Origin: an uncultured candidate division Zixibacteria bacterium
Lineage (GTDB): Bacteria; Zixibacteria; MSB-5A5; GN15; FEB-12
NCBI GenBank assembly: GCA_963735035.1
Contig: CAVTJJ010000004.1
Span: 1,056,001-1,120,000, forward strand
Length of the DNA: 64,000 nucleotides
Reading direction: 5' to 3'
Numbering within the stretch: the first letter of the stretch is position 1; each line of letters begins with the position of its first letter. Positions 9,837-55,010 of the stretch are shown here, in pieces. The notes beneath the pieces were generated by a model. The model worked only from the letters and a program-made list of their open reading frames with translations. It did no database searches and was not told the DNA's origin. Made by a program: the position numbers and the translations under genes.

Positions 9837-10022
9837 GGTCAATGCCGCTAGGTTTTCTAAATTCTGTCGCTGCTTGTGAGCGGATTTCCGACCATCGGGA
9901 GGTCACATTGACCACTCTTGCCGTCAGTGAGTCGTACGGCACCTTCTCGTATCTCTCGGCTACACAGATAGTTACGAGGCGATTTCGATTTAGCCTGTCG
10001 GCCGTTCTTGAAGGGATTCGGA

Positions 10023-10757
10023 ATGAAGACTGACGTTGTTGCGGTGATTCCGGCCCGGCTCGGCTCTACGCGATTTCCAGGCAAGCTTTTGTACCGGCAT
10101 CGCGGGAAACCGCTGCTATTCTATGTCTGGCGGCAGGTTACCAAAGCGAAGTTGGTTGATCGGGTCGTGATCGCTACGGACAGCTTCGAAATCGCCTCTG
10201 CAGCAGAATCGTTTGGGGCCGAAGTTGTTAAGACGTCGAACCGTCCCAAAAGCGGCACTGACCGGGTTGCAGAAGCGGTAGCTTCTATAAGCGGCAATAT
10301 TATTGTCAATGTTCAAGGAGATTGCTTCGGTCTGAATCCCGCACTTCTGGATCGGGTCATACAGGCCATGAAGAAGGAATCTCGTATCAAGTATGCTACT
10401 TTGGCCCGCCCCGTTGCTTCCGACGAAGAACTGTTCAATCCCTCCGTTGTCAAGGTGGCGGTGGGACGGGACGGCCGTGCGCTCTGGTTTTCGCGGTTCC
10501 CGATCCCGTATTTGCAGCGGCCCGACGAAAAACCCCGGTGCAAGCAGTTTGATTTTCTCGCCCATATCGGGGTCTATTTCTTCCGCCGCGCGGGTCTGGA
10601 ATCTTTCGCGGGCTGGAAACAATCCCCGTTCGAGAAAGCCGAGTCTTTGGAACAACTTCGGATTCTTGACAACGGCGGAATAATTCAGGTCTTTACGACG
10701 CGCGCGGCTATTTTTTCCGTGGACACGCCCGCCGATTTGAATAAGATAGGCAAGTAA
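10023..10757 (+). CDS. kdsB: 3-deoxy-manno-octulosonate cytidylyltransferase
   Basis: VIPARLGSTRFPGK, SGTDRVAEA, VNVQGD, ALWFSRFPIP, HIGVY, ESLEQLR, SVDTPADL. Confidence 0.93.
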   Translation: MKTDVVAVIPARLGSTRFPGKLLYRHRGKPLLFYVWRQVTKAKLVDRVVIATDSFEIASAAESFGAEVVKTSNRPKSGTDRVAEAVASISGNIIVNVQGDCFGLNPALLDRVIQAMKKESRIKYATLARPVASDEELFNPSVVKVAVGRDGRALWFSRFPIPYLQRPDEKPRCKQFDFLAHIGVYFFRRAGLESFAGWKQSPFEKAESLEQLRILDNGGIIQVFTTRAAIFSVDTPADLNKIGK

Positions 10758-21770: not shown

Positions 21771-21950
21771 AGAACATCTGACAATTGGTCTAACGCACGT
21801 TTTACGCGAATAAATACACATGAAGCCGTTCTTGGCTAGTTTTATAAGTTGGACAGGAAAATCGGGACCGCCCTAGACGTATGTCTTTGGTTGCCCGTTT
21901 TCTATGGACGAGAAAACAGGTAACGCACAAGAGAGTAACACGGAGTGCAC

Positions 21951-24900
21951 ATGTATCAGCCCAAACTTTTCCGGTTTGCGTTCCAGCCCCTCTGCGCCAC
22001 ATCGAATTTCACAAGACCAATCAAGACGCTGTTCTTGCTTGGTCTTTTTGCTGTGGTATTGGGTGCCGGTTCCTCGGTTAATGCCGCGGCAACTATTCGA
22101 ACTGATTCGCTGGCCTATGAACCGGGTTCGACCGTCGGGATCATCGGCACCAGCTTCATGGCCGGTGAAAACGTTAACCTGGTCGTGACCTACATTGACG
22201 GAACCCCGCTTGCTCCGGAAGTCCAGAGCAGCTGGACCGTCGTGGCCAGCGGCACCGGCACGATTGAAACCGGTGGTACATCCGGTTACAGCGGTCTGGA
22301 CGGAGGAGAGTTCAAGGGGTTTTCCACTTTCTGGACGATGTTCACGGGTGCGGCACCGGGGGATTCACTCCTGCTGACCGCCACGGGCGGAACCTCGGGA
22401 TACGTGGCAACTACGACGCTCCTTTGTCCGTCAAGCAACTTCGACCAGCTTCAAAATGGCACTCCAACGAACCCGTCGTGGGCAAATGGCAACATCAACC
22501 AGAATAATTCCTGCTATACTGAGGGAAACTCAGTCCCGTTCCGATTCTTCGTGCAAAGCCTCAGTTCCAATTCCACGCATACATTCCAGATATCGTTTGC
22601 TGCCACGAACGGTGGAAAGCACGCTTACGACTATCTTACCCAGTACAACCTGAGCGAGTCGGGGGCGATCATCACGGTGGGCGGTGAATGTAGTTCGGTA
22701 AGCCAGGCAGCGCCGGGTGATTGTGCGACCCCGGTCGCCGTGGTGGCGCTTCGTGATCCTCGTCTAAGCGCCAACTACAACTCCACACCCGGACCGGAGT
22801 TGTCGGGTATCCTTAATCTCTCGTTCCCGATCGACGGCCCTGGCAGTCTGTTTGCCTACAACGCCACCAACGTTACGATCAGCAAGTTCACGATCGGAGG
22901 AACGGTCTCCAATCGCACCTTGACGGCGACCGTTACCTTCAAGACCCTTCATAGCGGCAGTGCCGGTTTCTTCTGGGGCGGGCACATGGCTGAAGGTGTG
23001 ACTCCCGGCTGGGGTGTCAACATGGGGGCCGGTTCGATCACCGGTTCTTCATGGCATATGGATGCCGGTAAGGTCGACGGGTCCGGCGGGATGGTTGGCC
23101 GATCCGTTCAGAAGGGTACTATTTGTGTCGCCCCGACGGTTACTCTTTCCTGCAGTGCCGGTCCTTATTGTACCAACACCACCCAGACCTGCTCTGCGAC
23201 GGCCGGAGCTGGGACTTACTTCTGGACGATCACCGGTGGTACGCTTCTCACCGGCCAGGGTACCAATTCGATCACTTATAAGATTACCGCCTTGGCCGGA
23301 AGCCCGGTTACCGTCGCGGTGAACGCGAGCAACAATAACGGTGGCTGTGCCGGGAGTACTTGCAGCACCGACGCGAGCACACAGTTTACGGCCGAGGACT
23401 GCTGTACCGTGGCGATTACGTGCCCTCCGACCGCTACCGTTGCTTGCAATCAATCCATCAATCCCAGCAATACCGGAACGGCTACTTTCACGACTACCGG
23501 TTCCTGCCCGCTTCCGATAACTGTAAGTTACACCGATACCGAGACCGCCGGTGCCTGCCCGCAAGCGAAGACTGTTTCCCGTCTGTGGAAGGCCACCGAC
23601 GCCAACGGCCAGGTACGTGCTCAGTGCACCCAGACGATCAATGTTATTGATAATGTCGCGCCGGTGCTTTCCAGCGCTCCGGCCAATGTGACGGTTGAAT
23701 GCAGCAGCATTCCGGCTCCGGCCACTCTGACCGCCACCGACAACTGCGATCCGTCGCCGACCGTTGCAATGACGCAGACCACGACTCCTGGTTCCTGCGC
23801 CCAGCGGTATACTTTGACCCGCACCTGGACCGCGACCGATCACTGCGGCAACGCTTCGTCACGCTCGCAGGTCATTACGGTACAGGACACGCAGGCTCCT
23901 ACCATTACGTGTCCGCAGACAGTCACGGTGCAATGCGCCAGTCTGGTGCCGGCGCCTAATACGGCCCTGGTAGTAGTGAGCGACAACTGTGATCCGGCTC
24001 CGGTGGTTGCGTTTGTGAGCGACGTTTCCAACAATCTGACCTGCCCCGAGACGATCACCCGCACCTATCGGGCGACCGATGCCTGTGGCAACTCGGCCAC
24101 TTGCACCCAGCAAATCGTCGTTCATGATACGACCGCGCCGGTTGTGACTTGCCCTGCTCCTGTTTCGGTGCAGTGTCTGGCCGACGTGCCCGCTCCGAAT
24201 CTGGCTTTAGTGAGTGTGACCGACAATTGCGATCCGAACCCGGTCAAGGCCTGGGTGAGCGATCAACTTGGCACCACTACCTGTCCCAAGACCATTACCC
24301 GGACTTACAAAGCTACCGACGCCTGTGGTAACATCGGAAGCTGCACGCAGACTATTACAATAGATGATACTACGCCGCCGGCGATTACCTGCCCGGCTAA
24401 TACGTCGGTGTTGTGCGGCCAGTCCAGCGATCCTGCCCACACCGGCTATGCGACTGCAACCGACAACTGTACCCCCACTGGCAGTATCGTGATTACATAC
24501 GCAGACGTAGCCAACGGCGTAATTACCCGCACCTGGACTGCGACCGATGCCTGTGGCAACCAATCGACTTGCGTTCAAACTATCAACACTCCTCCGGATA
24601 CGGCTCCGCCGGTAATTACATCCTGTGCGGCGCCGGTAACGGTTGACTGCTTCGCCGATGTTCCCGCGCCGAACCCGGCGCTGGTCGTGGCCACTGATGC
24701 CTGTGACCCGAATCCGGTGACTACTTTTGTAAATGACGTACAAACCGGTTCGAGCTGTCCGTATACGGTTACCCGGACTTATCGCGTAACGGACGCTTCG
24801 GGCAACTCGTCAACCTGTACTCAGACAATTACAATCGACGACAACACGCCGCCAGTATTGGTCGGCACGCCGGCCAATGTAACGGTGAGCTGCGATGCTA

Positions 24901-27900
24901 TCCCGGCCCCGGCGACAGTGACGGCGACCGACAATTGCGCCGGAGTGACGGTCAACTATGACCAGTCCGATACTCCCGGCGCCTGTGCTCAGGCCAAGAC
25001 GATCACGCGCACCTGGACCGCGACCGATTTCTGCGGCAACCAGACGGCCTACTCGCAGACTATCACGGTTGTAGACAACACCGCGCCGGTGATTACGAGC
25101 TCTCCGGGTGCTGTCTCAGTACAGTGTGTAGCGAATATCCCGGTTCCTAATACTACCCTGGTAACGGCCACCGACAATTGCGATCCTGCTCCTGTGATTT
25201 CGTTCGTGAGCGATGTTTCCAACGGCCTGACTTGTCCGGAGACTTTCACGCGCACCTACAAGGCCCTGGATGCCTGTGGCAATGTGTCGTTCTGTACGCA
25301 GACGATAACGGTTCACGATACCACGCCGCCGACGATTTCCGGTCCGGCACCGGTCTCAGTTCAGTGTCTGACAGCAGTCCCGACACCCAACCCGGCTCTG
25401 TGCTCGGCGAGCGACAACTGTGACCCGACGCCCACTATCACCTTCGTGAGCGATGTGCCGAACGGTTCCGGCTGCCCGATAACCATCACTCGCACCTACA
25501 ATGCGACTGACGATTGCGGCAACTCGGTGACTTGTACTCAGACAATTACGGTTCACGACCAGACCGCGCCGCAGATCACCGACCCCGCGCCGGTCTCCGT
25601 ACAGTGTATGGGAGAAGTGCCTCAGCCGAATCCGACCCTGTGCACGGCTACTGACAACTGCGACCCGACCCCGACCGTCACGTTTGTGAGCGACGTCCCG
25701 AACGGCTCCGGTTGCCCTATGACTATCACTCGCACCTACAAGGCGACCGACGATTGCGGCAATGAGGCGACCTGTACGCAGACGATCACGGTGAATGACC
25801 AGACGCCGCCGCAAATTACCTGTCCGGCGCCGGTTTCGGTCCAGTGTCTGTCTCAGGTGCCGACACCTAACCCGGCTTTGTGTGTGGCGACCGACAACTG
25901 TGATCCGAATCCGACCGTTGCTTTTGTGAGCGACGTTCCGAATGGCACCGGTTGCCCGATGACCATCACTCGTACTTACAAGGCGACGGATGATTGCGGC
26001 AACGAGGCGACCTGTACGCAGACAATCACGGTCAATGATCAGACCCCCCCGCAGGTAACTTGTCCCGCGCCGATATCGGTACAGTGCGCGTCGCTGGTGC
26101 CGGCTCCGAACACGGCTCTGTGTATGGCGACCGACAACTGTGACCCGAATCCGGTTATCGCTTTCGTGAGCGACGTCTCCAACGGTCTGTCGTGTCCGGA
26201 GACGATCACCCGTACTTACAAGGCGACCGACGATTGCGGCAACGTCGCGACCAGCACTCAGACGATTACGATACATGATTTGACTGCGCCGCAGTTGACC
26301 TGCCCGGCGCCGGTAACGGTTCAGTGTATGTCGGCGGTTCCGCAGCCGAACCCGACACTGTGCACGGCCACTGACAATTGCGATCCGACTCCGACCGTTA
26401 CTTTTGTAAGCGATGTTCCGAACGGTTCCGGTTGTCCTCTGACCATCACGCGTACCTACAAGGCGACCGATGATTGCGGCAACGAGACATTCTGCACGCA
26501 GACGATTACGGTGAACGACCAGACCCCGCCGCAGATTTCCTGTCCGGGTCCTCTTGCTTTCTCCTGCGTAGGCGACGTGCCGCAGGCGAATCCGGCTCTT
26601 TGCACTGCCACCGACAATTGTGATCCGAATCCGGTGGTGGTGTGGGTGAGCGATGTGCCTCTGGGCTCGTGCCCGATGACCATAACTCGCACTTACAAGG
26701 CTACTGATAATTGCGGCAATCAGGCTACCTGTCAGCAGATCATCACGGTGCATGACCAGACGCCACCACAAATGGTGGGATGTCCGGCCAACGTGACCGT
26801 GGAATGCAACAATATCCCGGCGCCGGCCAATGTGACGGCCACGGACAACTGTTCCGGTGTAACGGTTGCCATGGTGGAGACCACCATTCCCGGTGCGTGC
26901 GCTCAGTTCTACACTATCACTCGCACATGGACGGCTACCGACGGCTGTAACAATCATGCTTCATGCCAGCAGACCATAACGGTCCATGACACCACGCCGC
27001 CGCAAGTTACCTGTCCCGATGCGATTACGGTTAACTGTCTTGGCGAGGTGCCGTCGCCAAATACGGCGCTTGTCATAGCCAACGACAATTGCGATCCCAA
27101 TCCCACGATCACTTTCGTGTCCGACGTTCGCGAAGGGACCGGCTGCCCGATGTACGTCGCTCGCACTTACCGTGCGGTCGATGCCTGTGGCAATGCGGCT
27201 ACCTGCACGCAGATGATTACTATAGATGATCGGTTGGCGCCGCAATTGTCCGGTTGCCCGCAGAATGTCACAGTGAGCTGTGGCCAGATTCCGCCGGTCG
27301 CTACCGTGACGGCCACCGACAACTGTGACGGTACGGTGAGCGTCACTCTCAACGAGGTTACTACTCCCGGGAGCTGTACTTACAACTACACGGTAACTCG
27401 TACCTGGACCGCGTCGGACATCTGTGGGAACCAGGCGCAGTGTCAACAGGTCATTACGGTTCGTGACGACACCGACCCTGAGATGACCTGCCCGGCCCCG
27501 CTCACGGTACAGTGTATCGGCGAAGTGCCACAGCCGAATCCGGCATCGGTGACCGTGTCCGACAACTGCGATCCGCATCCGGTCGTCTCGTTCGTGAGCG
27601 ACGTGCGCGGGCCTCAAAGCTGTTCGACCCTGATCATGCGTACTTATCGGGCCGTGGATGCCTGTGGCAACGAGGCCACTTGCACGCAGATGATTACGCT
27701 GAACGATGAGACACCGCCTGTCTTTACAACTTTCCCAACCGATCAGAACTTGTCCCAGTGTCAACCGACTCAGATTTGTTTGCCGGTGGTGGCTTCCGAC
27801 AATTGCCTTGGCAGTGTGGTCTATTCCGTGACGGCCGGTCAGGGCGCCATAGCCAACGGGCAATGGTGTTTCACACCGACCGCTTCGACCTCATTCGCGG

Positions 27901-30026
27901 TTACCGTCAGAGCGGCTGATACCTGCGGCAATTTTGTAGAGAGAACCTTTAACCTGGCCGTTCAAGTCAACCGGGTGCCGTCGTTCACCAATTGTCCGAC
28001 CAATGCCCAGGTTCACTGGGGTCAGACTTACACGGTTGATCTTGATGCGACCGATCTGGATGCCGGTCAGACTTTGACCTACAGCCTCTGTCCGAGCGCT
28101 CCGGCCGGAGCGTCGATAAACCCGACCACCGGCGTGCTGACATTTGCCGCGACCGCGCACGACATCTGCGATCCGAGCCTGTGTGTCATCGTCAAGGACA
28201 ACTGCAATTCGGCCGATACCTGCTCGTTCGACATCTGTGTCACCAACGATCCGCCGGTGATCACGTGTCCGGAATCGCAGACCCTTTGCTACGGCTATCC
28301 GCTCGAGACCCAGGTGACTGCGACGGATCCCGACCACGGCCCGTACCAGTTCTTCCATCTGGTCAACGGTCCGGCCGGTCTGCAGGTCAACGCCACTACG
28401 GGTCAGGTGACCTGGCCGAATCCGGTTCCCGGTTCGTACCAGGTGTGCGTCACGGTTACCGACAGTGCTGCGGTCTGTTCGCCGTGCAGCCCGTCGAATT
28501 CCGATACTTGCTGTTTTGCGGTGAACATTGTATCGCTCGACCTGGTCATCGAAAAACTTCACGATCAGATTCAGGGTCAATACACTGACGTCAGCATTGA
28601 TTTCAAGAACCAGGGCACGAACTGGCCGATAGCCGGTTTCGACCTGCTCATACAGTATGACGGCACGGCGCTGAGCTTCCAGATGGCGACCGAAGGCAAG
28701 TTCTTCACCGACTGTGCCTGGGAGTATTTCACCTATCGCTTTGGCGCCAATGGCAACTGCGGCGGTGGCGCATGTCCGTCGGGTATAGTACGCATCGTCG
28801 GGATGGCCGAAACTTCGGGCGGCAACATGGCCAACCACCCGGACTGCTATTCCAACGACGGCATTCCGAATCCAGGCCCCGGATCGACGACCTCAACCGA
28901 AATGGCGAATCTCAGATTCCTGGTCTCGGATAACCGTACGCTGGAATGTCAGTACGTTCCGATTCGTTTTGTCTGGTACGATTGCGGCGACAACGCCCTT
29001 TCGAACGTGCGTGGCGATACCATGTACGTATCACACTTCGTCTATGACTACGCCGGCGAGACCGGCCTTCCCCCGGTGGTGCAGTGGAACGACATTACCG
29101 GTCTGGACAATGACATGCCGACATTCACCGGTGCTCCGTCGCCGCAGTGTGATACCAGGTTTAAGTTCTGGCCGGTACGTTGTGCCAACTTCTACAACGG
29201 CGGTGTGGATATAATTTGCGCCGATTCGATCGACGCTCCTGGCGACATCAACCTGAACAACGTGGCGTATGAAATCGCCGACGCCGTAATGCTGACCAAT
29301 TACTTCACCATCGGCATGTCGGCTTTCGAAGGACACATTGAAGGCTCAATTGCGGCGTCCGATGTCAACCGTGACGGTCTCACGCTGTCAGTCGCCGACC
29401 TGGTTCTGCTGATTCGGGTGGTGGTAGGTGACTGCCTGCCGTACGCCAAGGAAATGCCGATGGCGCCTGTGGCCGCGGGATATTCCGTCGACGACGGAGT
29501 GGTGGCGGTATCGACCGACGTTGATATAAGCGGCGCTGCTCTCGTGGTGCGCGGAAACGTGGCGCCGGAGCTGCTGGCTACCGGTATGGACATGGCTTAC
29601 GCGTACGACGGCACGGTCACACGGATCGTTGTAACACCGCCGGTCAACGCGACTTCGATGCATTCCTTCCGCGGGGCCTTCATAAAGGGTATATACGGCG
29701 ACATCGTGTCGCTTGAGTTGGCCACGGCTCAGGGTGTCCCGGTGACGGCTCGAAACGTACCCGCGCGGTACTCGCTGAGCCAGAACTATCCGAACCCGTT
29801 CAACCCGATGACGACAGTCGAGTTTGCCTTACCGGCGGCCGGAGACTACCGTCTGACGATCTACAACATTGAAGGTCGCCAGGTGGATGTGTTCGAAGGA
29901 CGCGCGGACGCGCCGGGTGTATTCCGGATTGACTGGAATGCAGTTGACCGGGCCAGCGGTGTGTACCTGTACCGACTTGATGCCGGGAAGTTCTCACAGA
30001 CCCGCAAGATGTTGCTCTTGAAGTAG
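21951..30026 (+). CDS. Giant (~2690 aa) Cys-rich secreted protein: HYR-like repeats, Ig/cadherin-like domains, cohesin-like domain, dockerin, C-terminal sorting (T9SS/FlgD-like) tail
   Basis: GGAG RBS and signal peptide; 18 repeats of ~80 aa (TDNCD...TRTY.ATD.CGN...CTQTITV.D..PP); dockerin GDINLNN...IADAV / SDVNRDG...VADLV; tail LSQNYPNPFNP...ASGVYLYRL...RKMLLLK. Confidence 0.9.
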   Translation: MYQPKLFRFAFQPLCATSNFTRPIKTLFLLGLFAVVLGAGSSVNAAATIRTDSLAYEPGSTVGIIGTSFMAGENVNLVVTYIDGTPLAPEVQSSWTVVASGTGTIETGGTSGYSGLDGGEFKGFSTFWTMFTGAAPGDSLLLTATGGTSGYVATTTLLCPSSNFDQLQNGTPTNPSWANGNINQNNSCYTEGNSVPFRFFVQSLSSNSTHTFQISFAATNGGKHAYDYLTQYNLSESGAIITVGGECSSVSQAAPGDCATPVAVVALRDPRLSANYNSTPGPELSGILNLSFPIDGPGSLFAYNATNVTISKFTIGGTVSNRTLTATVTFKTLHSGSAGFFWGGHMAEGVTPGWGVNMGAGSITGSSWHMDAGKVDGSGGMVGRSVQKGTICVAPTVTLSCSAGPYCTNTTQTCSATAGAGTYFWTITGGTLLTGQGTNSITYKITALAGSPVTVAVNASNNNGGCAGSTCSTDASTQFTAEDCCTVAITCPPTATVACNQSINPSNTGTATFTTTGSCPLPITVSYTDTETAGACPQAKTVSRLWKATDANGQVRAQCTQTINVIDNVAPVLSSAPANVTVECSSIPAPATLTATDNCDPSPTVAMTQTTTPGSCAQRYTLTRTWTATDHCGNASSRSQVITVQDTQAPTITCPQTVTVQCASLVPAPNTALVVVSDNCDPAPVVAFVSDVSNNLTCPETITRTYRATDACGNSATCTQQIVVHDTTAPVVTCPAPVSVQCLADVPAPNLALVSVTDNCDPNPVKAWVSDQLGTTTCPKTITRTYKATDACGNIGSCTQTITIDDTTPPAITCPANTSVLCGQSSDPAHTGYATATDNCTPTGSIVITYADVANGVITRTWTATDACGNQSTCVQTINTPPDTAPPVITSCAAPVTVDCFADVPAPNPALVVATDACDPNPVTTFVNDVQTGSSCPYTVTRTYRVTDASGNSSTCTQTITIDDNTPPVLVGTPANVTVSCDAIPAPATVTATDNCAGVTVNYDQSDTPGACAQAKTITRTWTATDFCGNQTAYSQTITVVDNTAPVITSSPGAVSVQCVANIPVPNTTLVTATDNCDPAPVISFVSDVSNGLTCPETFTRTYKALDACGNVSFCTQTITVHDTTPPTISGPAPVSVQCLTAVPTPNPALCSASDNCDPTPTITFVSDVPNGSGCPITITRTYNATDDCGNSVTCTQTITVHDQTAPQITDPAPVSVQCMGEVPQPNPTLCTATDNCDPTPTVTFVSDVPNGSGCPMTITRTYKATDDCGNEATCTQTITVNDQTPPQITCPAPVSVQCLSQVPTPNPALCVATDNCDPNPTVAFVSDVPNGTGCPMTITRTYKATDDCGNEATCTQTITVNDQTPPQVTCPAPISVQCASLVPAPNTALCMATDNCDPNPVIAFVSDVSNGLSCPETITRTYKATDDCGNVATSTQTITIHDLTAPQLTCPAPVTVQCMSAVPQPNPTLCTATDNCDPTPTVTFVSDVPNGSGCPLTITRTYKATDDCGNETFCTQTITVNDQTPPQISCPGPLAFSCVGDVPQANPALCTATDNCDPNPVVVWVSDVPLGSCPMTITRTYKATDNCGNQATCQQIITVHDQTPPQMVGCPANVTVECNNIPAPANVTATDNCSGVTVAMVETTIPGACAQFYTITRTWTATDGCNNHASCQQTITVHDTTPPQVTCPDAITVNCLGEVPSPNTALVIANDNCDPNPTITFVSDVREGTGCPMYVARTYRAVDACGNAATCTQMITIDDRLAPQLSGCPQNVTVSCGQIPPVATVTATDNCDGTVSVTLNEVTTPGSCTYNYTVTRTWTASDICGNQAQCQQVITVRDDTDPEMTCPAPLTVQCIGEVPQPNPASVTVSDNCDPHPVVSFVSDVRGPQSCSTLIMRTYRAVDACGNEATCTQMITLNDETPPVFTTFPTDQNLSQCQPTQICLPVVASDNCLGSVVYSVTAGQGAIANGQWCFTPTASTSFAVTVRAADTCGNFVERTFNLAVQVNRVPSFTNCPTNAQVHWGQTYTVDLDATDLDAGQTLTYSLCPSAPAGASINPTTGVLTFAATAHDICDPSLCVIVKDNCNSADTCSFDICVTNDPPVITCPESQTLCYGYPLETQVTATDPDHGPYQFFHLVNGPAGLQVNATTGQVTWPNPVPGSYQVCVTVTDSAAVCSPCSPSNSDTCCFAVNIVSLDLVIEKLHDQIQGQYTDVSIDFKNQGTNWPIAGFDLLIQYDGTALSFQMATEGKFFTDCAWEYFTYRFGANGNCGGGACPSGIVRIVGMAETSGGNMANHPDCYSNDGIPNPGPGSTTSTEMANLRFLVSDNRTLECQYVPIRFVWYDCGDNALSNVRGDTMYVSHFVYDYAGETGLPPVVQWNDITGLDNDMPTFTGAPSPQCDTRFKFWPVRCANFYNGGVDIICADSIDAPGDINLNNVAYEIADAVMLTNYFTIGMSAFEGHIEGSIAASDVNRDGLTLSVADLVLLIRVVVGDCLPYAKEMPMAPVAAGYSVDDGVVAVSTDVDISGAALVVRGNVAPELLATGMDMAYAYDGTVTRIVVTPPVNATSMHSFRGAFIKGIYGDIVSLELATAQGVPVTARNVPARYSLSQNYPNPFNPMTTVEFALPAAGDYRLTIYNIEGRQVDVFEGRADAPGVFRIDWNAVDRASGVYLYRLDAGKFSQTRKMLLLK
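23404..27719 (+). repeat. Intragenic tandem repeat array, ~240-bp period, 18 units
   Basis: Units counted from the translation; those at ~25315-26770 are visibly the most similar at DNA level (e.g. recurring gtgagcgacgt..ccgaacggttccgg, tacaaggcgaccga.gattgcggcaa). Confidence 0.9.
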
Positions 30027-39742: not shown

Positions 39743-39901
39743 TACATATTCCGACCGCTTGCTTCGTTTAGAATACTACTGGACTTAGTCTGATGCAAGA
39801 TAGTATATGACGAATAGGTGGAACCTGACATACCATCAATACTGTATTAGTTGAGGTGGACAATAAGAAGCGGACGCGTTTCTAAGAATGGTATTCTGAC
39901 A

Positions 39902-40750
39902 ATGACCGAAACTGAACTGTTAAATGCAAGTGAGCGAAAACTTACCGATTTAAGGGCCCGGCTCAAATCGATGGGGCGGGTTCTAGTTGCCTATTCAGGC
40001 GGCGTGGACAGTGCCTTCCTGCTCAAGGCTGCGGTGGATGAACTCGGCGCCAACACCCTGGCGGTCACGGCTGATTCGCCCACAATCCCGCGTATGGAAC
40101 TCGAAGCGGCAGCCAGTCTGGCGCGCCAACTGGGCGCGAAGCACCTCGTGGTGAAGACCGACGAGATGGCCAACCCCGCCTTTATTGAAAATACTGCCGA
40201 TCGCTGCTACCACTGCAAGACGACCCTGTTTTCGACCCTGACCAACCTGGCGAATGAGAAGGGATTCGGCTGTGTGCTCGAAGGCTCCAATGTCAGCGAT
40301 CTGGCCGACTACCGTCCCGGCATGAAAGCGGTCAAACAATTCAACGTCCGAAGCCCCTTGCGTGAAGTCGGTCTCACCAAAGACGAGATTCGGCTTCTGT
40401 CGAGACAGGCTGGACTTCCGGTGTGGGACAAGCCGGCCGCACCCTGTTTGTCGTCGCGCATCCCGTATGGTTCGCCGATCACTCTGGAGAGACTGCACCG
40501 TATCGAAGCGGCGGAGGGGTTCGTTCGGCAATTGGGCTTCCCGATTCTCCGTGTACGGGATCATGGCCAGGTGGCCCGCATCGAGGTGCCGTCGGTTGAT
40601 ATCACGAAATTGCTCGATCCGGATGTGGCCGCACAAATACAAGAGCGTCTCAAGTTGCTCGGTTTCCAATATGTTACGATCGATATGGCTGGTTTCCGCT
40701 CCGGCAGTATGAATGAGGTGCTGGGGAAGGCGACCGATGGACCGCGCTAG
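39902..40750 (+). CDS. larE: ATP-dependent sulfur transferase LarE (three-Cys, [4Fe-4S]-type)
   Basis: PP-loop AYSGGVDS, RCYHCK, DYRPG, WDKPAAPCLSSRIPYG, LRVRDHG..ARIEV, GFRSGSMN. Confidence 0.93.
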   Translation: MTETELLNASERKLTDLRARLKSMGRVLVAYSGGVDSAFLLKAAVDELGANTLAVTADSPTIPRMELEAAASLARQLGAKHLVVKTDEMANPAFIENTADRCYHCKTTLFSTLTNLANEKGFGCVLEGSNVSDLADYRPGMKAVKQFNVRSPLREVGLTKDEIRLLSRQAGLPVWDKPAAPCLSSRIPYGSPITLERLHRIEAAEGFVRQLGFPILRVRDHGQVARIEVPSVDITKLLDPDVAAQIQERLKLLGFQYVTIDMAGFRSGSMNEVLGKATDGPR

Positions 40751-41495
40751 CCTCCGTCGACTTCTCGAAGAGGTTCAATCCGGCAAGATGGAAGTCGGCG
40801 CGGCGCTCGAACGTCTCAGGACCTTTCCGAGCGAGGACCTCGGTTTTGCTAAACTAGATACCCATCGGGCCCTTAGGCGCGGCTTCCCCGAAGTGATCTT
40901 CTGTACGGGGAAGACGGTCGAACAGATCGTGACGATTTTCGGGTCGCTCGCTCGTGACGGTCACCAGGTGATGGCCACCAGAGCCGGTGCTGATGTCTTC
41001 GAGGCGGTCAAACAACATCATCCCGGCGCGGTGTACCGGAGCGAAGCGCGAATTGTCCTGGCTTTGGAACCGTTGCCGCCGCGAACGGAAAAGAGGGTGG
41101 CGGTGGTTTCCGCGGGAACATCGGATATCCCGGTCGCCGAAGAAGCTGCAGTCACGGCTGAAGTAATGGGCTGCCCGGTGGACCGGATCTACGATGTCGG
41201 TGTGGCGGGGATTCATCGTCTGCTTGGCGAGCGCGACAAGCTCGCGACTGCCAACGTGCTCATAGTAGTGGCCGGTATGGAAGGGGCGCTGGCGTCGGTG
41301 GTTGGCGGCCTGGTCAGCCGCCCAATAGTCGCGGTACCAACTTCGGTGGGATACGGCGCCAGTTTTGAAGGTCTGGCGGCGCTCCTGGCGATGCTCAACA
41401 GTTGCTCGCCGGGCGTGGCGGTCATGAATATTGACAACGGCTTCGGCGCCGGCTACTTTGCCGCGACTGTCAATCTCGATAAGAACGAATTATGA
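40737..41495 (+). CDS. larB: Nickel-pincer cofactor biosynthesis carboxylase/hydrolase LarB
   Basis: FAKLDTHRALRRGFPEVI, SAGTSDIPVAEEA, DVGVAGIHRL, AGMEGALASV, VPTSVGYG, NIDNGFGAG. Confidence 0.95.
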   Translation: MDRASLRRLLEEVQSGKMEVGAALERLRTFPSEDLGFAKLDTHRALRRGFPEVIFCTGKTVEQIVTIFGSLARDGHQVMATRAGADVFEAVKQHHPGAVYRSEARIVLALEPLPPRTEKRVAVVSAGTSDIPVAEEAAVTAEVMGCPVDRIYDVGVAGIHRLLGERDKLATANVLIVVAGMEGALASVVGGLVSRPIVAVPTSVGYGASFEGLAALLAMLNSCSPGVAVMNIDNGFGAGYFAATVNLDKNEL

Positions 41496-42679
41496 AACTA
41501 CTCTATTTCGACTGCTTCTCCGGCATCAGCGGGGACATGATTCTCGGCGCCTTGATCGACGCCGGTGTTTCTCTGGACAAGCTGAAAGCCGAACTGGCGA
41601 AACTCAATCTCGCCGGATTCTCCATCACGGCCGAGAAGTGTGTCAAGAACGGCATCTCCGGGACGAAGGTGACCGTCCACACCGAAGACCAGAAAGTGCA
41701 TCGCCACCTCAAACATATTCACGAGATAATTGAGCCGAGCGGGCTGTCTGATAAGGCGAAGAAGACCAGCCTCAGAGTATTTCAGACGCTGGCCGAAGCC
41801 GAAGCCAGGATTCACAACACCAGCCCCGAGAAAATTCATTTTCACGAAGTAGGTGCACTCGACGCGATAGTCGATGTGGTCGGTTCAGTGGTAGGGCTGC
41901 AACTTCTGGGCATTGATCAAGTGTGGGCCTCGCCGGTACATGTCGGGACCGGTTTTGTCGACTGCCAGCACGGCCGCATACCTTTGCCGGCACCGGCCAC
42001 AGTCGAAATCCTCAAGGGAACGCCAGTATATTCCACCGGCCTCGACGCCGAATTGGTCACACCTACGGGAGCGGCGTTACTGAAGACTCTGGCCGACAGT
42101 TTCGGGCCGTTGCCTCCGATGCAACTCGAGACTATCGGCTACGGTGCGGGCACACAGGACCTGCCCATTCCGAATCACCTTCGCGTCATAGTTGGAACGA
42201 CGCAAGGTCAATTCGAATTCGATCAGGTCGATTTGATCGAGACCAACATCGATGACATGCCGCCGGAACATCTCGACTACGTTGTCGAACGCTTGATGAA
42301 AGCCGGTGCGCTGGATGTCTCGATGACACCACTGATCATGAAGAAGAGCCGTCCGGCCGTCTGCCTGGGGGTGCTAGTCATGCCGCAGGATACATCGCGT
42401 CTCCTGACAATCATATTCTCAGAAACGACGACTCTGGGTGTGCGCATTCAGAAAGTAGAGCGACGGAAACTCCCGCGTGAGATACGTACGGTGAAGACAC
42501 GTTTCGGCGATATTAGGGTCAAAGTCTCGTGGCTTGAAGGTTCCGTCAGAGACATGTCTCCCGAATATGAAGATTGCCGTCGATTGGCCCTTGAACACAA
42601 TGTACCACTTCATGAGGTCTACCGGGCGGCTAGTCACGCAGCGGAGCAGGAATGGCCGGATGATTCGCGGAAAGGATAG
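41492..42679 (+). CDS. larC: Nickel insertase (cyclometallase) LarC, single ORF
   Basis: DCFSGISGDMILGAL, HFHEVGALDAIVD, HGRIPLPAPAT, ELVTPTGAA, ETNIDDM, MKKSRP, ETTTLGVR, PEYEDC. Confidence 0.95.
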   Translation: MKLLYFDCFSGISGDMILGALIDAGVSLDKLKAELAKLNLAGFSITAEKCVKNGISGTKVTVHTEDQKVHRHLKHIHEIIEPSGLSDKAKKTSLRVFQTLAEAEARIHNTSPEKIHFHEVGALDAIVDVVGSVVGLQLLGIDQVWASPVHVGTGFVDCQHGRIPLPAPATVEILKGTPVYSTGLDAELVTPTGAALLKTLADSFGPLPPMQLETIGYGAGTQDLPIPNHLRVIVGTTQGQFEFDQVDLIETNIDDMPPEHLDYVVERLMKAGALDVSMTPLIMKKSRPAVCLGVLVMPQDTSRLLTIIFSETTTLGVRIQKVERRKLPREIRTVKTRFGDIRVKVSWLEGSVRDMSPEYEDCRRLALEHNVPLHEVYRAASHAAEQEWPDDSRKG

Positions 42680-49116: not shown

Positions 49117-50310
49117 ATGCGCCACGCCGTACTGAATCGATTTCATCAGATACGACCCTCATGGGACGGGTCGATCACCGACCCTTTTCTAGTGCCCGAT
49201 ATCACGCCGTTGCATCGTTCGATTGACGGTTATGCGCCTACGCCGCTGATCGAATTGCCTTCCTTGGCTGAGCGTTTAGGTGTGAAGCGAATTCTCGTGA
49301 AAGATGAATCCCATCGATTCGGATTGAAAGCCTTCAAAGCCCTCGGAGCTTCTTACGCCGCCTATCGATTCGTGAGGGAATACCTCGAAAGCAAGGGACG
49401 GCGCTGTCCCGAAGCGAGTGAATTCTATCGCCAGGGCGGGGTCCTGGGCCCGTCGGAATTCACATACTGTACGGCAACCGACGGCAACCACGGCCGTGGG
49501 GTGGCCTGGACTGCGCGGCAGTTGGGACAGCAGGCGGTAATATATATGCCGGCTGGATCAGTCACGGCCAGGGTCGAAAATATCCGCCGGGAAGGTGCTC
49601 GCGTAGTTCTGGTAGATGGCACCTATGACGACGCGGTTCGACAGTGCGCCCACGATGCCCGGACCGAAGGCTGGCAGGTGATCTCCGATACTTCCTGGCC
49701 AGGATACGAACAGATCTCGCGCTGGATCATGGCCGGTTATCTGACTCTGTTCCGTGAGATTGAGGAAGTTCTTCCCGACGCCAAAGTCGATTGTGTCATA
49801 ATTCAAGGCGGGGTGGGGGCGTTGGCAGGAACGGCTGCGTGGTATATTCGTCAATCGTCACCCTGGCCCGAGGCGAAACTTGTCTCGGTTGAACCGGTCG
49901 AGGCGGCCTGCCTTCTGGAATCTATCGATTCGCCGACGGGCGAACCGGTACAAAGCAAAGGTCGACAGGACAGCATCATGGCCGGGCTCAATTGCGGGTA
50001 TCCGTCACCGGCGGCCTGGCCCCTTATTAAGCCGGCTTTTGACCTGTTTCTGGCTGTACTGGACGCGGCCTGTGTACGGGCCATGCGGCAGTACTTCTAC
50101 CCCGTGGACTCGGATCCGAGAATCATATCGGGCGAATCGGGAGCTGCCGGCCTGGCCGCGCTCATGAGTCTCATGCAGGACAAGGCGTTCGAGACTTCCC
50201 GAAAGCAGGTTCGGCTCGGTCCGGAATCCACCGTTCTGTTGGTCAACACCGAGGGAGATACCGATCCGGCCGGGTTTGAGGCCGTTGTAAAGTCTGGCGA
50301 TTCGTGGTGA
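49117..50310 (+). CDS. dpaL: Diaminopropionate ammonia-lyase (PLP-dependent)
   Basis: KDESHRFGLKAFKALG, ATDGNHGRG, ISDTSWPGY, SIMAGLNCG, SGESGAAG, NTEGDTDP. Confidence 0.9.
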   Translation: MRHAVLNRFHQIRPSWDGSITDPFLVPDITPLHRSIDGYAPTPLIELPSLAERLGVKRILVKDESHRFGLKAFKALGASYAAYRFVREYLESKGRRCPEASEFYRQGGVLGPSEFTYCTATDGNHGRGVAWTARQLGQQAVIYMPAGSVTARVENIRREGARVVLVDGTYDDAVRQCAHDARTEGWQVISDTSWPGYEQISRWIMAGYLTLFREIEEVLPDAKVDCVIIQGGVGALAGTAAWYIRQSSPWPEAKLVSVEPVEAACLLESIDSPTGEPVQSKGRQDSIMAGLNCGYPSPAAWPLIKPAFDLFLAVLDAACVRAMRQYFYPVDSDPRIISGESGAAGLAALMSLMQDKAFETSRKQVRLGPESTVLLVNTEGDTDPAGFEAVVKSGDSW

Positions 50311-50457
50311 CCGGGATATACAAGTGGGCAAAAATACCGCTTTTCAGGATCGAATAGCGGCTATATCCTTGGGCCATGTTCTACTCGTTCTACAAGAGGT
50401 TGGTCTCATCATTATGATCCGGGTTCCCGCAGCCGGGTCGCTTTATCCCAAGGAGTA

Positions 50458-52470
50458 TTGTCGTTGAATCGCTTCCCCGATAGTCTTGCTACCGAGACCC
50501 CAATGCAAAGCTGCAAAGAGACTTATGAAGCCTCACGTCGCCGGGTGGGCTATGTGCCCCGGTCCGAGGCCGTTTCGGAGACTTATTCAGCCCTGGGTTT
50601 CAAGAGTGGGTTGGAAATCCACCAGCAGTTGCTGACCGCGAAGAAGTTGTTTTGTCATTGTCCGGCCGGACTTTATCAGCACGGTGAGTACGATGCCGAA
50701 GTTGTCCGTCACATGCGCCCGACTCTCAGCGAGATGGGGGAGTACGACGGCACCGCCCTTATGGAAAAGCGCACGCGCAAGACGATCATATATCGCATCA
50801 AGAAAGAAACCGCCTGCACCTACGATATCGATGACACGCCGCCGTTCAAGATTGACCGCACCGCGGTTGATATCGCGTTGGAAGTCGCCCTCATGCTGGG
50901 CTGCAATCTTGTGGGCGAATTGCACGTGGCTCGAAAGCAATATCTCGACGGCAGTATTCCAACCGGATTCCAGCGGACCGGTATCGTTGGAATTGAAGGC
51001 CAGATTCCGCTCAGCCACAAGAAGGTCCGCATCATCCAGCTTAGCATCGAAGAAGATTCCTGCCGGGAAGTCTCCGATATCGGTCATCTCCGGATATACA
51101 CTACCGACCGCCTCGGCATGCCGCTGATCGAGACCGTCACATACCCCGACATGCTTACCCCTGACGAAGTGGCAGAAGCGGCTCACTATCTCCGCCTGCT
51201 GGTAAGAACTTCCGGTAAAGTGCGAACCGGGATTGGCGCTGCCCGCGAAGATGTCAATGTCAGTATCACCGGTGGCACGCGAGTGGAAATAAAGGGCGTT
51301 TCGCACATTCGCTTGATTCCGGAATTGACCCACAACGAAGCTTTCCGGCAAAAGGCGCTTCTGCAAATCAAAGATATCGTCAGGGAGAAGCTGGGCGATC
51401 CCAAGAACTGGAAGGTGAGATCAAAAGAAATCACGCCCGGTCAATTCGAAAGCCTTCCGACCGTCATCTCCGAGCATCTCAAACCGAACGATCATGTGGT
51501 AGCCGTCAATCTCCCGGGGTTCCTGGGTCTGCTCTCGTATTTCACTCAACCGGGGAAGTGCTTCGCGAATGAGATCAGTGAGCGCCTGAAAGTTATTGCG
51601 TGTATCGAAAGACCCAATCTGGTTCATAGCGAATCGGAAGGCTGGTTTGATGATCGTGACGCATCGGAGATCAAACGCCTGCTCAACGCCGGTGACGCCG
51701 ATTCACAGATCGTCTATTGGGGGCCGGCCGACGATATGACTACCGCTACGGAGACGATCGAAGAACGCTGCAAGATGGCTTTCGACGGCGTTCCTAACGA
51801 AACCCGCAAGTCATTCCCCGACGGTACTACCATTTTCGAGCGGGTGTTGCCGGGTCCTGACCGCATGTACCCCGACACGGACTCGGCGCCGATTTCGATT
51901 CCAGCCGAGCATATCGAAACCATCCGAAAGCGCATGGTGAAAGTCCTGCCGGATTGGATCGAGCGGCTTCATCGCTGGAAGGTGCCGGTCGATACGCATC
52001 GCTATTTGATCCGGGGCAATCTGGTTCCGCTTATAGAAAAGATCGCTCTGACTACTGGATGGACTGAGAAGTATGTGGCATTGCTCTTCGGACATACATT
52101 GAAAGGCCTCGAACGTCGTCGGCCACGCGATGAGCGCTTCAAGCCGGAATTGCTCGCGTCACTCTGCGAGACTGTCCAGGCTTGCGGATGCGATCGCGCC
52201 TTGGTGAAAGAAGCGCTGTCGATTCTCTATGACGATATTTCCCGTTCACCCGAGGAAATCGTGAAGACGCTGTACGCTGACAAGCGTTCACTCCCCGACG
52301 CTATTGGCGGTGTGAAGACGCTGTCAGAGGAGTTCGACCGCATCAGTAAATCGCGGCATCCGGAAGCGCGACAGCGCTGGATTGTCGGAGCGCTACGACC
52401 GGCGGTGCTGGGGAAGGCCGATCTTAGACAACTGGCCGAGGCGGTCACCAGGGAGTTGAGTCATGTCTGA
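50458..52470 (+). CDS. gatE: Glu-tRNA(Gln) amidotransferase subunit E (archaeal type)
   Basis: GLEIHQQL, KLFCHCP, DGSIPTGFQRT, EEDSCR, DRLGMPLIE, REDVNVSI.GG.RVEIKGV, AspRS-like insertion, VPNETR, LPGPDRMYPDTD; start is TTG at 50458 or 50464. Confidence 0.92.
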   Translation: MSLNRFPDSLATETPMQSCKETYEASRRRVGYVPRSEAVSETYSALGFKSGLEIHQQLLTAKKLFCHCPAGLYQHGEYDAEVVRHMRPTLSEMGEYDGTALMEKRTRKTIIYRIKKETACTYDIDDTPPFKIDRTAVDIALEVALMLGCNLVGELHVARKQYLDGSIPTGFQRTGIVGIEGQIPLSHKKVRIIQLSIEEDSCREVSDIGHLRIYTTDRLGMPLIETVTYPDMLTPDEVAEAAHYLRLLVRTSGKVRTGIGAAREDVNVSITGGTRVEIKGVSHIRLIPELTHNEAFRQKALLQIKDIVREKLGDPKNWKVRSKEITPGQFESLPTVISEHLKPNDHVVAVNLPGFLGLLSYFTQPGKCFANEISERLKVIACIERPNLVHSESEGWFDDRDASEIKRLLNAGDADSQIVYWGPADDMTTATETIEERCKMAFDGVPNETRKSFPDGTTIFERVLPGPDRMYPDTDSAPISIPAEHIETIRKRMVKVLPDWIERLHRWKVPVDTHRYLIRGNLVPLIEKIALTTGWTEKYVALLFGHTLKGLERRRPRDERFKPELLASLCETVQACGCDRALVKEALSILYDDISRSPEEIVKTLYADKRSLPDAIGGVKTLSEEFDRISKSRHPEARQRWIVGALRPAVLGKADLRQLAEAVTRELSHV

Positions 52471-53845
52471 AGCACTTAAGGGATATAAGGGACCCGCCCT
52501 CAAAATGCTGGAGAAGCTGGGCGCATCGGTCTGGGACAACTGTACGGTAAAGACGACCCGCGGCGAGTTTAAAGGAATCGTCCTGCCTCGCTCGGAAAAC
52601 GACGATGACGGTCATCTGGTACTCAAGTTGATCAGTGGATACAATGTCGGGATCGCAGTTGACAGCATCACTTCTATCGACGTCGGTGGCCGAAAGGAAG
52701 CCCACTACAAGATTCCGGAAAAGGAATTCCCGAGTTCACCGAACAAGCCGAACGTGAGGCTGCTCGGCACCGGCGGCACGATTGCCTCGCGGCTTGACTA
52801 TCGCACCGGGGCAGTCATCCCGGCGTTCTCTCCGGGCGAATTGTACGGCGCTGTTCCGGAACTGGCCGACATCTGCAATCTGACCACCGAGAAACTGTTT
52901 GCGGTCTTCAGTGAAAACATGGGCCCGGAGCAGTACAAGAAACTGGCTATTCAAATCGGCCAGGAAATCGAGAAGGGCGTTGACGGCATCGTCATAGGCC
53001 ATGGCACCGATACCATGCACCACACCGCGGCGGCGCTGTCCTTCATGGTGCAGAATTCGCCCGTGCCGATTGTGCTGGTGGGTTCGCAACGGTCGTCGGA
53101 TCGGCCGTCTTCTGATGCCGCCCTTAATCTGATTCATGCCACGAAGACCGCAGCCGATTCGGATATCGCCGAAGTAGTCGTCTGCATGTTCGGACCAACT
53201 TCGGATGAATACGGCCTTCTGCACCGGGGCACCCGGGTGCGCAAGATGCACTCATCGTATCGTTCTACTTTCCGGACGGTCGGAGATATTCCCCTGGCGA
53301 TGGTCAATCGGGAGAAAGTCACGCCGCTGCACGACAACTACAACAAGCGGCGCAACGACCGTAAAGCGACCATTCTTCCGTATTTCGAGGAACGGGTAGC
53401 GATGGTGTACTACTACCCGAATATGCACCCCGACATGATCGATTCGCTGATTCAGAACGGCTACCGTGGGATTATCATCGCCGGCACCGGCCTGGGACAT
53501 ATCAACAAGCCGCTCTATCCAGCTATCGAGCGTGCCGCCGCGGCGGGCATCGCCGTCTACATGACCGTGCAGACCCTGTGGGGATACGTCCACATGTTTG
53601 TATATGACACGGGACGCGATCTTATGGCCAAGGGGATTATCCCGGCGGAGAACATGCTCCCGGAAGTGGCCTATATCAAGCTCGCCTGGGCGCTGGGCCA
53701 GACCGACGATCTCGACAAAGTCAAAGATATTATGCTCACTCCTATCTGCGGCGAAACCACCGAGCGCGAACCGTACAACGGCTACCTGATTCTCCAGGGC
53801 GGCGTACCCGAAGTTGAGGCGTTCTTACATACGATTCACAAGTAA
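52463..53845 (+). CDS. gatD: Glu-tRNA(Gln) amidotransferase subunit D (archaeal type)
   Basis: GatD N-terminal domain LVLKLISGYNVGI, TGGTIASRLDYRTGAV, HGTDT, GSQRSSDRPSSDA, RKMHSS, GTGLGH, MLPEVAYIKL.WALG; overlaps gatE. Confidence 0.94.
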   Translation: MSEALKGYKGPALKMLEKLGASVWDNCTVKTTRGEFKGIVLPRSENDDDGHLVLKLISGYNVGIAVDSITSIDVGGRKEAHYKIPEKEFPSSPNKPNVRLLGTGGTIASRLDYRTGAVIPAFSPGELYGAVPELADICNLTTEKLFAVFSENMGPEQYKKLAIQIGQEIEKGVDGIVIGHGTDTMHHTAAALSFMVQNSPVPIVLVGSQRSSDRPSSDAALNLIHATKTAADSDIAEVVVCMFGPTSDEYGLLHRGTRVRKMHSSYRSTFRTVGDIPLAMVNREKVTPLHDNYNKRRNDRKATILPYFEERVAMVYYYPNMHPDMIDSLIQNGYRGIIIAGTGLGHINKPLYPAIERAAAAGIAVYMTVQTLWGYVHMFVYDTGRDLMAKGIIPAENMLPEVAYIKLAWALGQTDDLDKVKDIMLTPICGETTEREPYNGYLILQGGVPEVEAFLHTIHK

Positions 53846-53874: not shown

Positions 53875-55010
53875 ATGCCCTGCAATTTTCAATACATAGA
53901 CACCGGGGACGCCCTTGAGGCGCTGGTCAAGCGTTTGGGGTCGGTCGAGAATGTGGCGGTCGATACCGAAGCGGACAGCCTGCATCACTATTATGAGAAG
54001 GTCTGTCTGATACAGCTTACGGTCGATCATGAAACGTACATTGTCGATCCTCTGGTTGAAATGCGGCTTGGCCCATTCCTTGACCTACTGTCCGGAAAGA
54101 GACTCCTGTTCCACGGCGCCGAATATGATCTCCGGATGTTGCGTGCATCCTATGGATTCAAACTCCAGGGCGAGGTCTTTGACACCATGCTCGCCGCGCA
54201 ACTGGTTGAAGGCAAGGCGTGCAGCCTGGTCGCGCTGGCCAAGAGCTATCTCGGAATCGAACTGACCAAACAGAAACAGCGTTCCGACTGGTCGCGCCGT
54301 CCGTTGAGTGACGAGCAATTGGTGTACGCCTGCAATGATACGTGTCATCTGGCCGCGATCACGGCCCATCTGGAAGGCGAGCTGGAAGCGACTGGGCCGT
54401 ATGGACTGGCATCGTGAATCTTGCCGTCGCATGGTGAAGGGCTACCAGTAAGGACAAATCACCGGTCGATCCGCAGCGCGAATGGCGCATCAAGGGCCTG
54501 AGTGAACTCGAACGCCATCAACTCGCGTTCGTGCGGGAAATCTGGTACTGGCGCGAACACGAGGCCCAGCAAGCCGATGTACCTCCGTTCAAAGTCGCCG
54601 GTAATCAGTTGATTCTCGATTTGGCGATGTGGGCTTCGGAAAAGCGGGGTGGTTCGACCACCGCTCGACCCAGGCTTCCGCGCAACTGTGTGGGGGGGAG
54701 ACTGGCCGGCCTTGAAGACGCCATCAAGCGCGCTCGCTACATGCGGGAGCCCGAGTGGCCGCCGCTTCGAACCGGTAATGGGATCATCTTGCCGGAACAC
54801 GGACCCGAAGTTGACCGCCTGCGCGCTGACAGCGCCGTCATTGCCGAGAAGCTGGGCATAGAGGCGTCGTTGCTGGCCTCGCGGCGACAACTCGAGGCGG
54901 TCTCGATTGCCCGCCCCACCACGGCTGCGGCGCTTCAGAAAGCCGGCAGCTTCATGGACTGGCAGACCGAGCTGCTGCTGCCGGTGGTCAAGAAGATATT
55001 TGGTTCCTGA
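53875..55010 (+). pseudogene. rnd: Ribonuclease D (exonuclease plus HRDC) with two +1 frameshifts at ~54388 and ~54440
   Basis: AVDTEADSLHHYYEKVCLIQL, FDTMLAA, SDWSRRPL..EQLVYA; bridging frame RLGRMDWHRESCRRMV; third frame WRIKG...WREHEAQQADVPPFKV. Confidence 0.85.

Follow-up and report, generated by a model that had tools for sequence, protein, structure and literature searches.

A resident bacterial-branch gatE-gatD operon beside GlnRS and GatCAB genes in a candidate division Zixibacteria genome

What would a bacterium that encodes glutaminyl-tRNA synthetase (GlnRS) do with GatDE, an amidotransferase regarded as archaeal? The question is raised by an overlapping gatE-gatD gene pair in a 64,000-nucleotide stretch of DNA (the whole of which is called the window below) of contig CAVTJJ010000004.1, positions 1,056,001 to 1,120,000, from an uncultured candidate division Zixibacteria bacterium (assembly GCA_963735035.1). 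In the consulted passages of three reviews, GatDE is called an "archaeal signature protein" (2008; PMC2330236), is placed "only in archaea" (2021; PMC8007984) and is still treated as archaea-only (2022; PMC9499178). In the literature on GatDE that we searched (bacteria, transfer, Bacteroidetes, Asgard), a description of bacterial GatDE was not found; NCBI already labels such bacterial proteins GatE. We lean, with modest confidence, towards the reading that the pair is a resident, functional GatDE of a bacterial branch, most likely an accessory route beside GlnRS and GatCAB. The features that carry this reading are as follows (coordinates of the window).

50450..50455, + strand: Shine-Dalgarno-like AAGGAG, a putative ribosome-binding site, 2 nucleotides (nt) 5' of TTG 50458 and 8 nt 5' of TTG 50464
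50458..52470, + strand: gatE, longest open reading frame (ORF), 670 amino acids, tRNA-binding kinase/amidotransferase subunit
52463..53845, + strand: gatD, ORF of 460 amino acids with an ATG start, asparaginase-type amide-donor subunit

The initial annotation had called an intact, overlapping gatE-gatD operon at 50458..53845, and this is what was found: two ORFs are present, the 3' end of gatE and the ATG of gatD overlap by 8 nt, the curated cut-offs are passed and the catalytic residues are kept. The start of gatE could be TTG 50458, TTG 50464 or ATG 50503, the choice among these being uncertain; gatD is a single-copy gene in the genome. GatD scored 517 bits against NF003217 (cut-off 310), and the GatD models reach 517 and 511 bits on it, compared with 382.7 for the asparaginase model TIGR00519. 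The Pfam domains are GatD_N (PF18195, 50.3 bits), which bears out the GatD N-terminal domain that had been proposed, Asparaginase and Asparaginase_C. Among solved structures, 2d6f_A matches this GatD at 1.8e-118, whereas plain asparaginases match it at about 1e-37 only, and GatD shares the TGGTIAS, HGTDT and RKMH stretches with 2d6f_A without a difference; for the role of each residue in the Thr nucleophile and the Thr-Lys-Asp triad we follow the review as consulted (PMC2330236). A plain type I L-asparaginase (AnsA type) was also considered for GatD and rejected, since GatD_N is present and the GatD models and structures match better.

GatE passed TIGR00134 at 379.3 bits (cut-off 319.55) and NF003107 at 461.7 bits (cut-off 456), the latter by a narrow margin. 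Its best structure match is 1zq1_C, GatE of P. abyssi (9.6e-82), with 2d6f_C also among the best, both archaeal, and residues 42-668 align continuously with residues 9-628 of 1zq1_C; GatB structure chains match at about 1e-20 only. GatB was rejected as the identity of GatE, the top GatB model giving 126.5 bits, far under its cut-off of 338, and the GatB rows being separate in the tree described below; by profile scores and structure matches, neither protein groups with GatB or with plain asparaginases. Residues H55, E198 and E225 align with His15, Glu157 and Glu184, given as the Mg2+ ligands of M. thermautotrophicus GatE in the consulted part of the review (PMC2330236), and do not vary in any of the 110 aligned GatE rows. 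As for the GatE insertion domain, the part of the earlier claim that stands is a continuous alignment to the GatE structures through this region, where a separate Pfam match was not found. The GatE tail matches Pfam GatB_Yqey weakly (18.4 bits, cut-off 27), and the alignment contains no group-specific gaps of 4 or more columns between the bacterial clade and archaeal GatE.

A changed way of encoding glutamine had been proposed as one consequence of the operon, and this is not supported. The genome (3.6 Mb, 6 contigs, 96.9% complete) encodes all of glnS, gatCAB, gltX and asnS: GlnRS (729.8 bits), GatB (519 bits) with gatC just upstream, GatA (split over two frames), one GluRS, and AsnRS (split over three frames), besides one bacterial-type AspRS (frame-broken), AsnB and two GlnA loci, both frame-broken. 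There are two tRNA-Gln genes (UUG and CUG), each with the bacterial U1-A72 pair and G73; the archaeal identity element A1-U72 is absent from both, a property of the host's tRNA rather than of GatE and GatD themselves. The 1-72 pairs were taken from the drawn ARAGORN structures only, because the tRNA ends given by ARAGORN vary, which made the automated reading of 49 tRNAs unreliable. Since GlnRS and GatCAB are both encoded, GatDE is not the route on which decoding depends, and since AsnRS and AsnB are encoded, tRNA-dependent asparagine synthesis is not needed here; glutamine decoding is thus probably unchanged. The frame breaks lie in gatA (C2:10574-11951; contig label and coordinates), asnS (two breaks; C4:470739-472111), aspS (C4:1134231-1136013) and the two glnA loci (C3:387048-388434 and C6:299148-300447), and were not located at long homopolymers. 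We read them as probable assembly indels because many housekeeping genes are broken in a 97%-complete genome.

The distribution of GatDE was examined in a species-level collection (one genome per species), in which at least 577 stretches encode GatE relatives; locus comparisons refer to the best 80 of these. All 80 bear bacterial titles, the holders including Zixibacteria, Ignavibacteria, Bacteroidales, Aminicenantes, Cloacimonadota, Calditrichota and Bacteriovoracaceae, and a cultured holder of GatDE is Marinifilum flexuosum DSM 21950 (locus L087). The best GatE match among the matches listed is from Zixibacteria (72% identity). A gatD lies 3' of gatE in 74 of the 80 loci, at a spacing of 360 nt or less in 69 of the 74 and of 1.6-4.8 kb in 5; in the remaining 6 the contig stops 0-720 nt past gatE. 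The wide gaps (L096, L023, L053, L057 and L059) could accommodate inserted passenger genes. GatD of the window is 66-81% identical to its counterparts in the 74 loci, compared with 45-72% for GatE. In 1 of the 80 loci (L037) a tRNA-Gln gene with U1-A72 adjoins the operon, directly 5' of gatE.

Within the phylum, 151 genomes were sampled, with the following combinations.

GatE, GlnRS and GatB present: 49 of 151 genomes, our own genome included
GatE and GlnRS present, GatB absent: 40 of 151
GatE and GatB present, GlnRS absent: 7 of 151
GatE present, GlnRS and GatB absent: 0 of 151
GatE absent, GlnRS and GatB present: 15 of 151
GatE and GatB absent, GlnRS present: 17 of 151
GatE and GlnRS absent, GatB present: 16 of 151
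GatE fragment only, any state of GlnRS and GatB: 7 of 151

GatE is thus over the cut-off in 96 of 151 genomes, with fragments in 7 more, and GatDE in this window is ordinary for its phylum, neither rare nor exceptional in this lineage. AsnRS matches were obtained in 151 of 151 genomes (148 over the cut-off). In the phylum around Marinifilum, GatE is present in 11 of 201 sampled genomes. Outside the Zixibacteria phylum sample, 14 further GatE-bearing genomes have GlnRS in 14 of 14 and GatB too in 10, which gives a GatE-bearing set of 110 (96 + 14; G154 is the same as G034 and was counted once), with GlnRS in 103 and GatB in the other 7. Among the GlnRS-positive genomes, 49 of the 89 that carry GatE also have GatB, as do 15 of the 32 that lack GatE, so that there is no complementarity between GatDE and GatCAB; all these counts are descriptive and are not tests, because the genomes are related and hence not independent samples. 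The phylum has two kinds of GatE, which lie in different parts of the bacterial clade: a crown type (TIGR00134 377-433 bits; families f1, f2, f4, f5 and f7) and a type nearer the archaeal form (444-514 bits; families f8, f9, f13, f14, f15 and f18).

To place GatE, HMMER was run against 1.84 billion representatives (600 proteins at E <= 1e-30), and three GatE trees rooted on bacterial GatB were reconstructed: FastTree with 195 rows, IQ-TREE in quick mode with 110 rows, and IQ-TREE with 69 rows under the LG+G4 model with 1000 ultrafast bootstraps. The sequences known to be bacterial (20 from the phylum sample, up to 69 named loci, and 3 named representatives, namely two Deltaproteobacteria metagenome-assembled genomes and one CSSED10-310 bacterium) all fall in one GatE clade in the three trees (100/99 in the 69-row tree). 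The sister of this clade is a representative with a cluster member named Candidatus Heimdallarchaeota (TET29438.1; 100/98 in the 69-row tree), and the next group out holds a protein named Candidatus Thorarchaeota (MFW9855810.1; 84/54). Representatives named Thermoprotei, Acidilobaceae or Desulfurococcaceae, and Methanofastidiosa group apart in a GatE clade of their own (99/96), and a branch supported at 100/100 splits off the five GatB rows from every GatE row. The trees comprise GatE only, with a simple model and heterogeneous composition; each archaeal label comes from one named metagenome-assembled genome, and many rows are unnamed. They support, on sequence relationships, an archaeal origin of the bacterial GatDE clade, in keeping with the earlier suggestion of an old interdomain transfer or a bacterial GatDE clade.

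The stem branch of the crown clade is long (0.44-0.45). GatE sequences of the phylum are scattered over several places of the bacterial clade, and because phyla are mixed in the crown clade, interbacterial transfers or mislabelled bins are likely. The GatE sequences of L018 (Ignavibacteria title) and L020 (Zixibacteria title) are near-identical, with end branches of 0.008 and 0.013, which means either a mislabelled bin or a very recent transfer. The GatE motif that had been noted as differing from the archaeal form proved to be a real difference.

50932..50979, + strand: GatE motif RKQYLDGSIPTGFQRT (residues 159-174), a signature of bacterial plus Asgard-type GatE

All 28 crown-clade rows have this motif unchanged, as does the Heimdallarchaeota-labelled representative, and in the other rows of the bacterial clade 39 to 46 of 46 have the same residue, column by column. 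At GatE positions 162, 167 and 168, the classical archaeal rows have V (20 of 20), N (20 of 20) and T (18 of 20), so that the changes in the RK...GFQRT motif, from archaeal to bacterial GatE, are V to Y, N to I and T to P; GatB carries Y and P at the motif sites, as bacterial GatE does. In total, bacterial and classical archaeal GatE are fixed for different residues in ten alignment columns; in 7 of these the Heimdallarchaeota-labelled row agrees with the bacteria, leaving 3 of the 10 specific to bacteria. GatE of the crown clade has a 17-residue N-terminal extension, and no other domain has been gained or lost relative to archaeal GatE.

If the bacterial proteins work as their homologues do, GatD would free ammonia from Asn or Gln, and GatE would bind the acceptor arm and D-loop of tRNA-Gln, use ATP to phosphorylate the glutamate carried by Glu-tRNA(Gln), and amidate this to give Gln-tRNA(Gln). 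The Glu-tRNA(Gln) would be supplied by the single GluRS, which would have to mischarge a tRNA-Gln with U1-A72, and this tRNA would have to be accepted as substrate by an active GatDE. The accessory use may then be a second supply of Gln-tRNA at low free glutamine, or the clean-up of mischarged tRNA. A functional, accessory GatDE is argued from the passing of curated cut-offs and the full-length alignment of both proteins with archaeal structures, from the invariant Mg2+ ligands and the linkage of gatE to gatD in 74 of 80 loci, and from the identity of GatD (88%) and GatE (71%) to the copies of a congener, compared with 60-71% for the flanking genes. It is argued further from the presence of GlnRS, GatB, GatC, GatA, AsnRS, GluRS and AsnB genes in the same genome, and from its spread through the phylum without complementarity to GatCAB. 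A tie to the bacterial tRNA-Gln is suggested by L037, with its U1-A72 tRNA-Gln gene directly before gatE.

Several observations weigh against an accessory glutaminyl-tRNA route. Not one of the 110 GatE-bearing genomes is without both GlnRS and GatB. GatE is commoner with GlnRS (89 of 127 genomes) than without it (7 of 24), which goes against a supply role, an argument that is only suggestive. The genes gatA, asnS, aspS, both glnA and rnd (see below) are frame-broken, and if these breaks are real, the inventory of routes changes. At the GluRS position that corresponds to Arg358 in the T. thermophilus enzyme, mapped by way of what we take to be Gly366 of T. elongatus, 41 of 41 GluRS of the phylum have Arg, those fetched from 20 genomes without GlnRS included. 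The marker is therefore uninformative on GluRS discrimination; although Arg358 is the discrimination marker in the consulted part of its source (PMC2978374), it did not separate genomes with GlnRS from those without and was dropped. Finally, archaeal GatDE is described, in the part of the review consulted, as recognising A1-U72 and the D-loop (PMC2330236), and the tRNA-Gln genes of this host have U1-A72. Regarding GluRS itself, a divergent form is common to GlnRS-less genomes of two genera (G011, G012, G027, G020, G025, G046 and G030; L113-L118 and L131), scoring 464-473 bits versus about 500-570 elsewhere and having LIQPRIEKFSQI or a closely similar sequence as a local motif.

Some of these observations also feed the alternative that survives best, a tentative one which we regard as rather unlikely: a bacterial GatDE that has kept its chemistry and changed its substrate or role, acting on something other than Glu-tRNA(Gln) for decoding. 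The substrate might be Asp-tRNA(Asn) or another aminoacyl-tRNA, or a tRNA used outside translation, or GatD might be mainly a regulated asparaginase. The always-accessory distribution makes a changed substrate somewhat more plausible as a possibility, as do the higher frequency of GatE with GlnRS, the missing A1-U72 of the host tRNA-Gln, and the 40 phylum genomes in which no amidotransferase other than GatDE was found although they have GlnRS and, like all 151, an AsnRS match. To these can be added the long stem to the crown clade that holds this gatE, and the unusual conservation of GatD over GatE across the 74 loci, which are from other phyla. Against it, the catalytic and Mg2+ residues are all kept, the domains beyond the N-terminal extension are those of archaeal GatE, and just 3 of the 10 signature columns are bacteria-specific. 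Asp-tRNA(Asn) in particular is disfavoured here by AsnRS and AsnB, and by the GatE insertion domain, which was modelled to clash with AspRS in the part of the review consulted (PMC2330236); the coupling of gatE to a tRNA-Gln gene in L037 speaks for the usual tRNA. In a form that joins this alternative to the tree, the operon could be an Asgard-type (Heimdallarchaeota-like) descendant that is now accessory, its role having changed to another aminoacyl-tRNA or to a conditional bypass (for example when nitrogen is limiting) on U1-A72 tRNA-Gln with asparagine as amide donor; we put this forward as a doubtful but conceivable version.

A decaying relic, inherited and unused while GlnRS and GatCAB do the work, is far less probable: the route is redundant on paper, but both ORFs are intact where several housekeeping genes of the assembly carry frame breaks, the catalytic residues are invariant, roughly two in three sampled genomes of the phylum keep the operon, and GatD stands above the flanking genes in identity to the congener copy.

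The operon also proved native to this chromosome. Its neighbours, and two bacterial genes that had been pointed out farther off in the window and were both located, are these.

5183..6181: mltG
10008..10754: kdsB
49117..50310, + strand: pyridoxal-phosphate enzyme of the diaminopropionate (DAP) ammonia-lyase family, upstream of gatE (NF006058, 420.1 bits)
53875..55010, + strand: RNase D (rnd), downstream of gatD, in two frames (53875..54417 and 54531..55010), with Pfam DNA_pol_A_exo1 and HRDC and a TIGR01388 match

The flanking genes are bacterial throughout and include pyrG, a sigma-54 response regulator, larBCE, MsbA-like ABC exporters and TolC as well as mltG and kdsB. The congener G014, which was separately assembled, shares the order DAP ammonia-lyase, gatE, gatD, rnd, with amino-acid identities of 64%, 71%, 88% and 60-71%, respectively, and has the RNase D parts in a single frame; GatD is thus under tighter constraint than its neighbours. 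Beyond gatD, de novo clustering of the neighbours gave no family present in more than 10 of the 80 related loci. The window's flanking genes do not recur there (tblastn with 7 flanking window proteins), DAP ammonia-lyase and RNase D being found in 0 of 80, so these two genes are outside the conserved gatE-gatD unit. A promoter and terminator scan gave matches at chance level, with 3 promoter-like sites against 3.1 expected. A recent import, contamination or a chimeric contig, with archaeal-looking genes foreign to the chromosome, is to be given practically no credence: its sole basis is the textbook expectation of an archaeal GatDE (PMC2330236, PMC9499178 and PMC8007984, as consulted), the gene order common to the independently assembled congener refutes it, the GC content at gatE-gatD (0.556-0.565) lies in a flat profile inside the window range of 0.528-0.589, a scan of 37 flanking window ORFs matched no mobile-element family, GatE is widespread in the phylum, and the closest relatives, among the matches listed and in the tree alike, are Zixibacteria sequences.

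Some further features of the genome and the window were observed. A full-looking pyrrolysine gene set lies outside the window at C2:17943-23981 (L178), about 4.5 kb downstream of gatC-gatA-gatB, and comprises a radical-SAM ORF, an unnamed ORF of 423 amino acids, PylD (PF21455, 97.8 bits), a tRNA with a CUA anticodon that ARAGORN calls tRNA-Pyl (C2:21792-21864) and the PylS catalytic domain (TIGR02367, 314 bits, cut-off 178). A tRNA-SeC (UCA) gene is encoded at C6:279330-279426, so UGA is probably read as selenocysteine at some sites. Within the window, an ORF of 2693 amino acids (21945..30023, + strand) has a weak OmpL47-like surface-protein stretch as its sole family match, and a larE-larB-larC cluster for the nickel-pincer cofactor occupies 39851..42676 (+ strand).

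The archaea-only premise underlies arguments in the reviews, so far as consulted, on the co-evolution of GatDE with archaeal tRNA-Gln and on why archaea never took up GlnRS, and a large bacterial GatDE clade contradicts it. Bacterial GatDE always occurs with GlnRS and/or GatCAB, with U1-A72 in the host tRNA-Gln where examined, which raises the testable question of what purpose a second or third route to Gln-tRNA serves; because Marinifilum flexuosum DSM 21950 is cultured, its enzymology is within reach. Compared with archaeal GatDE (M. thermautotrophicus, 2D6F; P. abyssi, 1ZQ1), the operon described here encodes the same two subunits with the same domain order by full-length alignment, and the GatE Mg2+ ligands, the GatD asparaginase motifs and the operon coupling are alike. 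It differs in its bacterial host with GlnRS, AsnRS and GatCAB, in the U1-A72 instead of A1-U72 of the tRNA-Gln, and in the ten signature columns and the crown-clade N-terminal extension of GatE; moreover, archaeal GatDE is the sole route to Gln-tRNA(Gln) in the absence of GlnRS, whereas bacterial GatDE is never the sole route in 110 genomes. The nearest named archaeal relatives in the trees are the Asgard GatE proteins of Heimdallarchaeota (TET29438.1) and Thorarchaeota (MFW9855810.1), whose hosts differ in presumably having no GlnRS, to go by a statement on archaea in the consulted part of a review (PMC9499178). The closest parallel in circumstance is GatCAB of Thermus, Deinococcus and Bdellovibrio, which is likewise kept beside GlnRS and AsnRS and serves tRNA-dependent amino-acid synthesis rather than as the sole decoding route, according to the abstract (PMC4206432). 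That enzyme differs in being built of a GatA amidase and GatB, and its retained role is with Asp-tRNA(Asn) (same source and extent), whereas AsnB is present in the genome studied here.

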